Sequence record: NC_048002.1
DNA: 39,883 nucleotides
Strand: one strand, 5' to 3'
Source of the DNA: Escherichia phage SRT7
The notes under the pieces were generated by a model that did not search any database, had not been told where the DNA came from, and saw nothing but the letters and a program-made list of their open reading frames with translations. The first letter of the stretch is position 1; every line of letters starts with the position of its first letter. A program made the translations under genes and the position numbers. Shown in pieces: positions 1 to 39,883 of this stretch.

Positions 1-175
1 AGGGACTGAGGCATAACCAAATGTCACCAAAGGTCTCCCAAATGTCACCAAATGTCTCACCGCACCACCTCAGGAGAACCAAAGGTGAACTGAAAGAGGA
101 ACCAAAGGGGAAAGGGACACCAAAGGTGAACTGAAAGAGGCCTATGGGGGAACTTTGGGAGTTGTATCTTTGAGA
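1..175. repeat. Direct terminal repeat, 175 bp, identical to 39709-39883 (phage right-end copy in conventional orientation)
   Basis: First 175 nt match the last 175 nt of the window exactly; contains short CCAAAGG repeats. Confidence 0.95.
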
Positions 176-565
176 TAGTCACTCAGATTTTTCTGTAGGA
201 TTCTTAAAGGGACCTCCAAAGGTATCACCAAAGGGTACGGCCTAACCAAAGGTAGACCACAAGAGGCCATGAGAGACCCTTGGATGGTTAACGTTTAGGT
301 GGTCAGGTGTGAGTGATGTGATAGTGTGTATCATCATATCAGGAACACCTATAGACCCATTTGAGTACACCGTAGCGTTTACCTCTTTAGGATATAACTA
401 TAGGATAGCTATGTGCCTCTAAGTACCATTAGGATAGGGTGATTATAATAATATCCACCCTCTCATAAGGACACTCTAAGTAATCTGTTAATGGTCATAA
501 TGGTCTTGAATGAATACTTATGGTGAATAACTATAATGATAACTTAAGGTAGTCTTTGAGTACCC

Positions 566-587
566 TCTCCCTATAGTGTGGGTTAAT
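566..587 (-). promoter_or_regulatory. Phage RNAP promoter (phiOR-like), downstream of terminase gene
   Basis: Minus strand reads ATTAACCCACACTATAGGGAGA; one of 12 near-identical copies. Confidence 0.85.
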
Positions 588-690
588 GCAAACCTATTGA
601 TTCATAAGGAATTTCTAAAAGAGGCACATCCTTGTGTCCTCTCATAGTTATTCACTTAAAGTGCATAAGCACTCAATGTGACCTAAGGTA

Positions 691-2944: not shown

Positions 2945-2992
2945 GCATTCATAAAGGCCACCACATGTAGTGACCTTGAGTATGCCTATCAG
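2945..2992 (-). promoter_or_regulatory. RNase III-type processing hairpin (R18.5-like), overlaps gene 18 stop
   Basis: Minus RNA CTGATAGG...AAGGTCAC-loop-GTGGCCTT; 8-bp upper stem; same motif family at 25527, 36021, 37847. Confidence 0.5.
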
Positions 2993-3261
2993 TTGAGCGT
3001 TGGTCGCTCGTCTTCGGTTAGACCATCGGAGCCTACCTGAGCGTTATAGTCGCCAAGTGCTCCAGCCAGTCCACCAAGGATGTTTGCATCAGGTTTCAGC
3101 TTAGCAATCTGGAACTTATGGCGCTCCAGCAGTTTACCTATGGCGTTATAGAGCTGAGGGGTTCTACGCTCAGGGTTCTGTAGGTCCATCAGCATCTGCT
3201 GTGCCATGTTGGTGTCCAGCATCTCAAGGAGAGACATAAGGGTTGCATCAGGTTTACTCAT
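2989..3261 (-). CDS. gp18: Terminase small subunit (T7 gp18-like)
   Basis: 90 aa; LLEMLDT...PQLYNAIGKLLERHKFQI matches T7 gp18. Confidence 0.9.
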   Translation of the reverse strand: MSKPDATLMSLLEMLDTNMAQQMLMDLQNPERRTPQLYNAIGKLLERHKFQIAKLKPDANILGGLAGALGDYNAQVGSDGLTEDERPTLN

Positions 3262-5399: not shown

Positions 5400-5421
5400 T
5401 CTCCCTATAGTGTGGGTTAAT
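5400..5421 (-). promoter_or_regulatory. Phage RNAP promoter (phi17-like)
   Basis: tctccctatagtgtgggttaat on plus strand, i.e. consensus promoter on minus strand. Confidence 0.88.
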
Positions 5422-5423
5422 GA

Positions 5424-8400
5424 TTACCAGCGCTCTGAACGCTTAGGTCGCTCGGTTGTGTAGATGTGCTCTTCGAAAGCACCCAGAAGTAGTCTCTGAG
5501 TAATCGGGTCGTTCGGGAGAACTTCCTTCATATTCTGATAGACACCTGTAGTGAACTCCGTGGAGTCGCGAGGGCCATTGGCACCTCCGAGGTTCCAGAG
5601 GTTCTGACCGAGAGACACCGTAGAGCCAACGTAGTTAGCCACAGGGAACTGTTGACCAATAGCACCCATCAGCTCAGCCGTACCGGAACGACCAGAGGAA
5701 GCCTTGTTAGGGTCTCGCTGTGGTGCATCCTTAGGACTGATAGTGGTACGCATGTACTGACTAGGGGTTAGACCTAATGGGCCAAGTAGCATATCGGCTA
5801 CACCTAATGGCGCACCAGTGATAGAGCTTCGGGAGGCCGCAGCGTAGGTAACCATCTCAGGCGATAAAGCCTTGAAGAGATAGGCCTCACGTTGGTTCTC
5901 AGGAAGACCAGCAGCTTTCATGTGTGACTGCATCACATAGAACGAACCAGCCAACATTCCAGAGATACCAGTAGACAACGCAGCATCCATAGCTCGACCA
6001 TCTCGAGTCGCCTGATAGTAAGTACGTAGGGTCTTACCATTGAGGGACTTAATGACGAACGTCTTAAACTGGAGAGCAGCACCCACAATCGGGCCCAACT
6101 GTTTCACGTTCTGAGCGTTCAGCTTGGAAGGACGAAGCATGGTCTCATCGGCTACCTTGTCAGCCATACGCCACAAGTCCATAGCCCGAGGGTCAAGGCT
6201 CATTGCGTGTTGGTCTGGGAAGCTCCACTTACCGTTAGCGTCCACCTTGGCGTGGTCTTTGAGGAACTGAATGATACCCTTGGACTGCTCAGGCGTGATG
6301 CTGGCAGACTTCAGGAAGTTCTCATTGAGCCACTTGGATGACTTACCAGTCGCAGCGTGTTCAATCAGGTTCCCAATGAGACCCTGACGTGCAGCGCTAA
6401 GCAGGTAGTTCGTGGTGCCTTGTAGCAGCTTACTCATAGGCCACGCAGCGGCAATCTCCTGAGTCCCGAACTTAAGGGAACCCAGAGCGTTTGCACCGAA
6501 TGAACCCATACCAGAGTTGTCACGAAGAGACTGAATGAGGTCTGCCCGTTGAGGGCGAATCATATTGTCCACTTCACGACCCATCAAGCCATACTCCAGC
6601 TTCTGAAGGTCAGTCCCGGAGACAGCCTTAGTGGAACGCATCATGTCACGAACCACAGGGATACCGTGGAACAGAGCACGAACGTTACCCTTGGCAATCA
6701 TACCACCAATCTCCGTCAGGTTCAGAAGACCCATGTAGGCGTTCTTAGCGACAAAGCTCAGGTCTTTAAGAACACCCATAGCCATGTCCACAGCGCCGTT
6801 AGGGTCACGACGAGCACGACCAGTGAGTAACTTCACGGTATCTTCGAGGGCGTTAGCGTCCTGCTTCAGCTTACCGGAAGGGTCACTCTTGGCTCGCTCA
6901 CGGATAGCGGTAATCTTATCCAGCAAGTCCTGAGTAGTCTGACCCGTAGAGTGAATCGCAATGTCACCATTGGTTCGACGGGCATAATTACGCAGCAGCT
7001 TGTTAGCGTCAAAGCTACGAAGGTCATTCAGGGAGAACATCGTACCATCTGGCAGTTGAGACTTGAAGCCCATGCTAAACCCATGACGGCTCTCAAGGAA
7101 GTTGTTCTTCCCGAGGTTCATAGAGTTCGACGCAGAGGCGATATCGTCCAGTGCAAGGTTGGTAGTAAACTCACCATTTACAATACCGAATGCCTTATCA
7201 TTGGCCCACTTCTCAACCATCTCAGGTGTAACTGCGGCTGGGCTATCCAGACCGTTCTTAGCGGCTACCATCTCGTCTACCACAGACTTCGTGTTAGGGT
7301 TGGACGCATAGTCAGCCAAGAAGTGGCGCTGCATGGCACCTTGAGCATCCTCAATGGAGTTCCCAAAGACATTACGGAATGCAGCCACCTTCTCAGGTAC
7401 ATAAGCCACCGGGAAGTATTTGCCGCTAAGTTTCGTCTTGTTCATCACAGGGATTGCTTTAGGGTTACCGAACATCGCAGGGTTAGACATAGCGTCTTCC
7501 TTGCTGGTGGTGAACCGGAAGATTTCATCACGCAGCTTGGATTCACCCTTGGTCAACTTAGAGACGCCAATACCATCTTCCTGTGCTTCCACTGCACGAC
7601 GCACCACGGTCTCACGTGCCAGAGCATCCCCACGGTTAGCGCCCATAGTCCACTCAGGGTCTTTGATTGCATCACGTGTGAACTGCTCAATAGCCGTTAG
7701 GTCGGACGTATCGGTGTAGTGCAGACGCTCAGCCACGTCAGAGGCAACCGTACCGGACTTACCGGAGCCGCCTTTAACGTAACCTGTAGTGGAACGCAGG
7801 AGGTCATAGGCAACACCACGGACTTCATCGTCGGCAGAGCGAGACAGGTGCAGGGAGATATCGGTCATGGAACCCATACGTACACCCATAGAGCCCTTAG
7901 TCACCTCAGGGTCTACCGAAGCAAACTGAGAGGCACTATTAGGGTTCAGAGGGTTACTGGTTGACAGCACTTGACCATCCGGCAGGACTACTTCGCCACT
8001 GTCGAGGGTTGCATATTGAGAGCCATTCGGAGAGGTCTTAAAGTCCAGACCCTCGGTACTCACAGCAGAGTTATCCGGTAGGCCACGCATGGCTGCATCA
8101 CGAGACTCAGCGCGAGCTGTTGCCGCAAGGACGCTCTCAGCTTCACGAGGGTTGGCACGATGTAACACACCAGTCAGGCCAGCACCGAACAGTAAGCCAC
8201 CACCAGCCGCCATCATGTAGTCTGCATGTCCACCACCAACACCCACACGTAAACCTTCAGAGGCTACGTTCAGAGCACCAGCTTGAGTACCTACAGTCAC
8301 CATACGACGACCTAGGGAGATACCCTTGGAAGCCGCACCAGCAATCGGGATGTAGCTCACAGGGTCTACAGCAGCACCAGCGAGAGCACCCACGAGGTGG

Positions 8401-12807: not shown

Positions 12808-12829
12808 TCTCCCTATAGTGTGGGTTAAT
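12808..12829 (-). promoter_or_regulatory. Phage RNAP promoter (phi13-like)
   Basis: Consensus 22-mer on minus strand. Confidence 0.88.
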
Positions 12830-12853
12830 GCACACCACAAGGAGAGCCTATTG

Positions 12854-39384: not shown

Positions 39385-39406
39385 GCTCCTTATAGTGTGG
39401 GTTAAT
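39385..39406 (-). promoter_or_regulatory. Phage RNAP promoter (phiOL-like; AAGGAGC initiating variant)
   Basis: Minus ATTAACCCACACTATAAGGAGC, ~300 bp inside the left terminal repeat. Confidence 0.7.
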
Positions 39407-39708
39407 AGGCCGTGATAATAGCTATTGACTCTTTGGTCTCTTTAAGTTACCTTATAAGCGTACCACAGATAGACCGCTCTTTAACAATCTGACCAGTAGC
39501 ACCAGCATCACAGCAAAGATGCGACCAATAAGCCCTGAGAGCCTAGCTAATCACCTCTCTGATAAACTGATAGCAAACCATAAGCCATGAGACTGACGGT
39601 CTCTGATAAGCGTCACAGCGCTACTGAGAGTAAACCAAAGGATGGGCACCGACCAAAGGTGATGACCTGAGGTGACATTGAGTGATGACCTTATGATGTC
39701 CAACAGAT

Positions 39709-39883
39709 AGGGACTGAGGCATAACCAAATGTCACCAAAGGTCTCCCAAATGTCACCAAATGTCTCACCGCACCACCTCAGGAGAACCAAAGGTGAACTG
39801 AAAGAGGAACCAAAGGGGAAAGGGACACCAAAGGTGAACTGAAAGAGGCCTATGGGGGAACTTTGGGAGTTGTATCTTTGAGA
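39709..39883. repeat. Direct terminal repeat, 175 bp, identical to 1-175 (phage left-end copy)
   Basis: Exact match to the first 175 nt of the window. Confidence 0.95.

Follow-up and report, generated by a model that had tools for sequence, protein, structure and literature searches.

CCAAAGG repeats in and beside the terminal repeat of Escherichia phage SRT7, a probable Foetvirus version of the short-repeat arrays at T7-type genome ends

The genome ends of Escherichia phage SRT7 carry a one-strand cluster of CCAAAGG repeats that is very probably the Foetvirus equivalent of the CCTAAAG arrays found within and next to the terminal repeats (TRs) of phages T7 and T3. Short-repeat arrays at T7-like ends are already known as a kind; the CCTTTGG version, which is CCAAAGG in reverse complement, belongs to the lineage of this phage. 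Taken whole, our explanation is that the cluster is the Foetvirus version of these junction arrays and has an accessory role at the concatemer junction, and we put its probability at roughly 0.6.

The stretch of DNA analyzed, hereafter the window, is 39,883 bases long and comprises the complete genome of a T7-like podovirus (Autographiviridae, Studiervirinae, genus Foetvirus), whose closest relative is Escherichia phage P1723 (98.2% identity over 25 kb). Because its matches to relatives are all on the minus strand, as are the genes for the large terminase gp19 (691-2442), which adjoins position 1, and for the small terminase gp18 (2989-3261), which is near it, the window runs opposite to the conventional T7 map, as its reverse complement. 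The conventional right end is window 1-300, and the conventional left end is window 39600-39883. A TR of 175 bp is present as two identical copies, the conventional right-end copy at 1-175 and the conventional left-end copy at 39709-39883. On the conventional strand it starts with TCTCAAAGATAC and ends with CTCAGTCCCT, like the TRs of T7 and T3; a conserved block ending in AAAAATCTGAGTGACTA stands before its start (TCTCAAAG), and ATCTGTT follows its GTCCCT end, again as in T7 and T3. These termini and flanking blocks bear out the proposal of T7-type genome ends made in a first-pass annotation of the sequence. What that annotation called the left repeat copy, however, sits at the window's right end and is the left end only in the conventional orientation. 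In the GenBank record of P1723 (MT465573; L001/L002 in our set), there is a single TR copy, which begins at TCTGTT, and the annotated 192-bp TR of phage PPWS4 (NC_047819; L009/L010) ends 31 bp short of a conserved CTCCCT/ATCTGTT boundary, which suggests that the end annotation of both records is imprecise.

Seven copies of CCAAAGG lie on the plus strand within the first 260 bp, starting at 27, 79, 102, 120, 216, 228, and 246. This agrees with an earlier count of at least seven, and every copy is followed by T or G, as had been claimed. Four exact copies are inside the TR (27-33, 79-85, 102-108, and 120-126), and the second TR copy repeats them at 39735, 39787, 39810, and 39828. Three more (216-222, 228-234, and 246-252) lie in the unique sequence that adjoins the conventional right-end TR on its inner side, the SRR position of T7, and two (39635-39641 and 39653-39659) lie in the corresponding unique sequence at the conventional left end, the SRL position of T7; all of these are on the plus strand, and both flanking groups are the same in P1723. 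Two sites had previously been placed near 39645 and 39653; the latter was right, but the former is really at 39635-39641 and is followed by A. Likewise, an extended motif proposed for the copies in the first 260 bp holds for six of the seven, which read ACCAAAGG, but not for the copy at 216, which reads TCCAAAGG and starts with T instead of A. Within the window, the conserved repeat unit is 9 bp, A-CCAAA(G/T)G-T, and the bases further out vary. The core reads A-CCTTTGG-T in the conventional orientation and has nine exact copies and three CATTTGG variants on a single strand in three places: three exact copies at the SRR position, four together with the three variants in the TR, and two at the SRL position. 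The opposite strand of the junction has no CCAAAGG copies.

Two longer duplications had been described inside the TR, and both are there. The first, a 21-bp unit (CCAAAGGTGAACTGAAAGAGG), is found at 79-99 and 120-140 and becomes 22 bp with a leading A; this 22-bp repeat (ACCAAAGGTGAACTGAAAGAGG; plus strand, 78-99 and 119-140) has its copies 41 bp apart and its equivalents at 39786-39807 and 39827-39848. The second, AAATGTCACCAAA, at 19-31 and 40-52, lies within a 21-bp tandem unit (plus strand, 17-37 and 38-58; 95% identical) that contains CCAAATG at 17, 38, and 48 and CCAAAGG at 27, so that the units in 17-58 are spaced by 10, 11, and 10 bp. Judging by these 21-bp and 41-bp units, the repeats arose at least partly via local tandem duplication.

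The cluster is far denser than composition would produce. Counting both strands of the whole window, CCAAAGG has 24 matches, compared with 4.7 +/- 2.3 in shuffled sequences, and none of 100 shuffles reached 24. The 358-bp junction (TR counted once) holds nine copies, whereas the other 38.8 kb hold eight on the same strand and three on the opposite one, a same-strand density ~120-fold higher in the junction than in the rest (Poisson P ~3e-16). Equal frequency throughout the genome, the outcome that the first-pass annotation had named as fatal to its claim, was thus not what the k-mer enrichment check returned. Because the motif had been chosen after being seen, we also scanned all 360-bp windows for all 7-mers, and the commonest 7-mer reached at most four copies outside the junction, as against nine in it. 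Between 400 and 39400, the eight plus-strand and three minus-strand copies favor the strand opposite to that of the genes, a bias for which codons and composition probably account.

These results also bear on chance or faulty assembly as the source of the cluster, which is the least probable of the explanations considered. Assemblies of T7-like phages tend to go wrong in repeat regions near the TRs (PMC10438801), so exact counts of the units inside the TR need care and could be slightly wrong. However, the enrichment is far above chance, the independently deposited P1723 genome has identical flanking units and a similar TR, and the TR boundaries coincide exactly with the conserved T7-type termini. 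On these three grounds we rejected chance or artefact for the existence of the array.

To place the cluster among its relatives, we compared the window with T7, T3, phiYeO3-12, and PPWS4 from GenBank and with 33 T7-like IMG/VR loci found by a conserved block (AAAAATCTRARTGRSTATCTCA). The whole junction could be read in 15 genomes, the window included. In all 15 the commonest junction 7-mer is found to the left and to the right of the TR, and 12 of them have it within the TR as well; across the 15 junctions, 150 copies are on the conventional top strand and none is on the bottom strand. The groups of T7, T3, and phiYeO3-12 have CCTAAAG as this 7-mer, one further clade has CCTTATG, a single locus (L021, with eleven copies in its junction) has CTATCAG, and PPWS4 has CATTAGG, along with CCTCAAG. 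Among the junctions compared, only those of the window and P1723 have CCTTTGG. The comparison with the end architecture of T7 and T3 that had been recommended therefore reveals one-strand short-repeat arrays at equivalent places in T7, T3, phiYeO3-12, and other Studiervirinae. Since these relatives share the three-part, one-strand layout, we regard the CCAAAGG cluster as the Foetvirus member of a subfamily-wide feature.

The window has the traits of T7-type junction arrays, namely, the TR termini, copies in the TR and on both sides of it, a single strand, and enrichment. In both phages, arrays of a 7-bp core occupy the TR and both flanks, with the same boundaries, ATCTGTT, and phiOL- and phiOR-like promoters further in. 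In contrast, the traits of the T7/T3 subtype, a CCTAAAG core and a spacing of ~13 bp, are absent; the core of the window is CCTTTGG, and its copies are spaced by 18, 12, 23, and, in the TR, 10-11 bp, whereas the T7 and T3 groups space theirs by ~13 bp. The flanking copies are also fewer in the window (three and two, versus two and eight in T7), and its TR is 175 bp long, compared with 160 bp in T7. T3 and phiYeO3-12 (Teetrevirus) have the same three-part distribution on the same strand, but their core is CCTAAAG or CTTAAAG, their TR is 230-232 bp, and their spacing is 12-13 bp. No 160-bp stretch of the genome shows a stronger 10.5-bp AA/TT periodicity than the TR of the window (1-160), where its power is 1.15, the 99th percentile being 0.52. 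In T7- and T3-type junctions, however, the peak is at 12-13 bp, and we therefore rejected helical phasing as a trait of these junctions in general.

Dunn and Studier (1983) are said to have named the T7 short-repeat arrays SRL and SRR. Our comparison confirmed the CCTAAAG array sequences of T7 beside and inside its 160-bp TR. A full-text literature search for the T7 SRL/SRR repeats found no paper that describes these repeats or tests them experimentally, and the arrays carry no annotation in the GenBank records of T7 and T7M. Two metagenome scans yielded no further Foetvirus junctions, and the only close relative in the phage collection was P1723. A scan of IMG/VR for three spaced copies of CCTTTGG returned 118 loci, mostly unrelated, among which only one, L072 (IMGVR_UViG_3300018413_001333), encodes a T7-like terminase. 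This distant T7-like contig (gp19 43% identical) has, at 5780-5950, tandem 10-12-bp units, ATACCAAAGGA and ATACCTAAGGA, directly after the terminase gene; its CCAAAGG is on the coding strand, an orientation opposite to that in the window.

Flanks and TR interior differ in how far their repeats have changed. The window and P1723 have the same five flanking units, whereas their TR interiors are only 92% identical, compared with 98% genome-wide, and differ by unit-sized insertions and deletions and by conversions between CCTTTGG and CATTTGG. A similar pattern is seen in two IMG/VR loci, L018 and L033, in which gp19 is 98% identical and the flanking CCTTATG units are alike, but the TR-interior repeats differ. 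Conservation of the 7-mers relative to their surroundings depends on the lineage. In the T3 group, none of 63 columns within 7-mers is variable, compared with 136 of the 587 other columns (23%; p = 3e-7). In the T7 group, 43 of 91 columns within 7-mers vary, compared with 168 of 489 others, so that the 7-mers are no better conserved than the DNA around them, and in one member, L017, the array has been converted to CCTAACG.

The main rival explanation draws on this turnover. It holds that the array is a neutral by-product of slippage and unequal recombination in non-coding junction DNA, that the 7-mer is not read by anything, and that the TR interior needs only to be identical at both ends. The tandem 21-bp and 41-bp units would then be expected, as would the unit-sized indels and lowered identity that set apart the TR interiors of the window and P1723, the whole replacement of the TR-interior repeats between L018 and L033 despite their 98% identical gp19, the concerted conversion to CCTAACG in L017, and the lack of extra conservation in the 7-mer columns of the T7 group. 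However, slippage leaves unexplained why the same 7-mer stands in non-tandem, irregular copies inside the TR and on both sides of it. Neither does it account for the strand bias of 150 to 0 over 15 junctions, for the invariant 7-mers of the T3 group amid varying spacers, or for the conserved core and variable flanks within the window. The last of these, the retention of the core with its two nearest neighboring bases while the further flanks vary, points to partial constraint on the core, as do the invariant 7-mers of the T3 group and the flanking units shared with P1723. On balance, we consider a purely neutral origin unlikely, although it has more in its favor than any other rival.

If the repeats are read, the small terminase is a candidate reader. 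Direct-repeat arrays beside the cut site are typical of small-terminase (TerS) sites, and the CCAAAGG units could on this account be gp18 binding sites, in which case the change of 7-mer would record a change in TerS specificity. The R sites of lambda cosB and the pacL/pacR boxes of SPP1 resemble the window in having several short direct repeats beside a terminase cut site, which makes the analogy plausible; they differ in that the window has no homology to them and its gp18 no covariation with the repeats. Further points in favor are that gp18 is said to recognize PacB in the T7 concatemer (PMC9860248) and that CCTAAAG is common to T3 and T7, whose gp18 proteins are interchangeable (PMC3276506). 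The terminases of the compared genomes argue otherwise. gp18 is well conserved across all lineages despite their differing 7-mers, being 93-95% identical between genomes with CCTAAAG, CCTTATG, and CTCTGTGGATAAC repeats. One locus, L034 (IMGVR_UViG_651703085_000001), shares 95% gp18 identity with L033, from the CCTTATG clade, and 95% gp19 identity with T7; by these identities, it is a natural recombinant. Its ends are nonetheless T7-type, with CCTAAAG arrays and an 11-bp tandem CCCTCCTAAAG array in the TR. Conversely, the gp18 proteins of L018, L033, and L036 are at least 93% identical to that of L034, yet their TR repeats are different. The repeat sequence thus does not change with gp18, as TerS recognition would predict, and the conserved helix of gp18 fits recognition of the conserved boundary block better. 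We therefore rejected gp18 as the reader of the repeats, and regard an array of TerS sites as improbable.

Instead, the repeat type tracks the gp19 tree. Gene 19 adjoins the right end, so this agreement may reflect linkage only. A related idea is that the 7-mer arrays are lineage-specific address labels, read by a phage factor other than gp18, possibly gp19 or a gp19 complex. T3 and T7 do tell each other's DNA apart through gp19 together with the terminal sequences (PMC3276506), but because both have CCTAAAG, the 7-mer cannot be the discriminator between them. We consider the address-label reading improbable. If it were true, the arrays would favor, in a T7-like phage, the processing and packaging of its own concatemers over those of a co-infecting relative, and the change from CCTAAAG to CCTTTGG in Foetvirus would mark a changed packaging specificity.

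The elements that do look like sequence-specific signals are at the TR boundaries, where the sequence barely changes among the compared genomes. A conserved 36-bp block, CCCTTTAAGAATCCTACAGAAAAATCTGAGTGACTA (176-211, minus strand), lies directly before the TR start, TCTCA, and is near-identical in T7, T3, phiYeO3-12, PPWS4, and T7-like IMG/VR loci; it is a candidate right-end cleavage and recognition signal. At the other boundary, ATCTGTT (39702-39708, minus strand) directly follows the TR end to form a GTCCCT/ATCTGTT boundary. This heptamer corresponds in sequence and position to the class II pause and termination signal of the T7 concatemer junction and is distinct from the CCAAAGG repeats, of which it is a single-copy neighbor. 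The signal has been described as a seven-base element (bioRxiv 10.64898/2026.02.12.705533), and RNA polymerase pauses at the T7 concatemer junction (PMC3276506). Twelve of the 15 junctions carry ATCTGTT there and two carry ATCTGTA; in PPWS4, ATCTGTT comes 31 bp beyond the TR end as annotated. In T7, PacB and PacC together make up the Pac signal of the concatemer junction, the site of gp18 and gp19 action (PMC9860248), and recognition and cutting have been assigned to PacB and PacC (PMC9860248) and to the RNA polymerase pause at the junction (PMC3276506). The conserved boundary elements are natural candidates for the sequence-specific functions of PacB and PacC, and they are likelier signals for cutting and pausing than the 7-mers.

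Other features lie near these boundaries. An imperfect 24-nt inverted repeat (39664-39687/39720-39743) spans the left TR boundary and ATCTGTT, with a predicted DNA fold of -15.1 kcal/mol (z = -2.8). A conserved TR-boundary hairpin was rejected, as the inverted repeat is found only in the window and is absent from the 14 other junctions. Further in, the promoter closest to the conventional right end (567-591, minus strand) is phiOR-like, its relative position matching that of T7 phiOR, and the one closest to the conventional left end (39386-39410, minus strand) is phiOL-like, with the variant start TATAAGGAG as in T7 phiOL. Both belong to a 12-copy family of phage RNA polymerase promoters, ATTAACCCACACTATAGGGAG, on the minus strand (567-591, 5401-5425, 12809-12833, and so on to 39386-39410). 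A simple scan for sigma-70 promoters and terminators found none at either genome end. A second repeat family is present on the conventional left side, where TCTCTGATAA occurs at 39556-39565 and 39600-39609; on the conventional strand it reads TTATCAGAGA, and PPWS4 carries similar TTATCAGAG units. Between the phiOR-like promoter and the CCAAAGG units, at 385-436, are three 10-bp units, CTTTAGGATA, CTATAGGATA, and CATTAGGATA, one of which includes a T7-type CCTAAAG on the conventional strand.

The junction could also encode a small protein or produce a structured or otherwise functional RNA. Minus-strand ORFs of 41-42 amino acids overlap the region, and late transcription reads through the junction (PMC3276506). 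The small ORFs, however, do not share a reading frame, and no relatives were detected for them; the one at 242-370 has no similarity to T7 gp19.5, the window has no Rfam match, the TR is cut at the physical ends, and the spacing of the repeats is variable and not a multiple of three. A coding or RNA feature is accordingly very improbable, ranking just above chance and artefact.

We infer a role for the repeats in concatemer processing and packaging from their position only. The variation of the 7-mer by lineage, its lack of covariation with gp18, and the fast turnover of the TR interior speak against the idea that the repeats themselves are the sequence-specific packaging signal. The 36-bp block before TCTCA, for the right-end cut, and GTCCCT/ATCTGTT, for the left-end boundary and the RNA polymerase pause, are the likeliest sequence-specific signals at the junction. 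The repeats, which all point one way and lie between these signals and around them, would then be accessory DNA-level elements, which may help the gp18/gp19 terminase and the paused RNA polymerase-lysozyme complex to load on the junction or to organize it in a defined direction. This reading of the repeats as accessory, direction-giving elements of the concatemer junction is tentative, at somewhat less than even odds, and is the functional role that we favor among those considered.

The comparison makes predictions that can be tested, namely, that the strand and three-part distribution of the arrays are kept, that their sequence changes by lineage, and that gp18 does not covary with them. It also has practical bearing. 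Transducing particles and phagemids make use of T7-type junction sequences as their packaging signals (PMC9860248, PMC13236587), and the design of such signals for Studiervirinae other than T7 needs the conserved parts, the boundary blocks and ATCTGTT, to be separated from the lineage-specific 7-mer arrays. For SRT7 itself, the CCAAAGG arrays are an expected part of a T7-like genome end.
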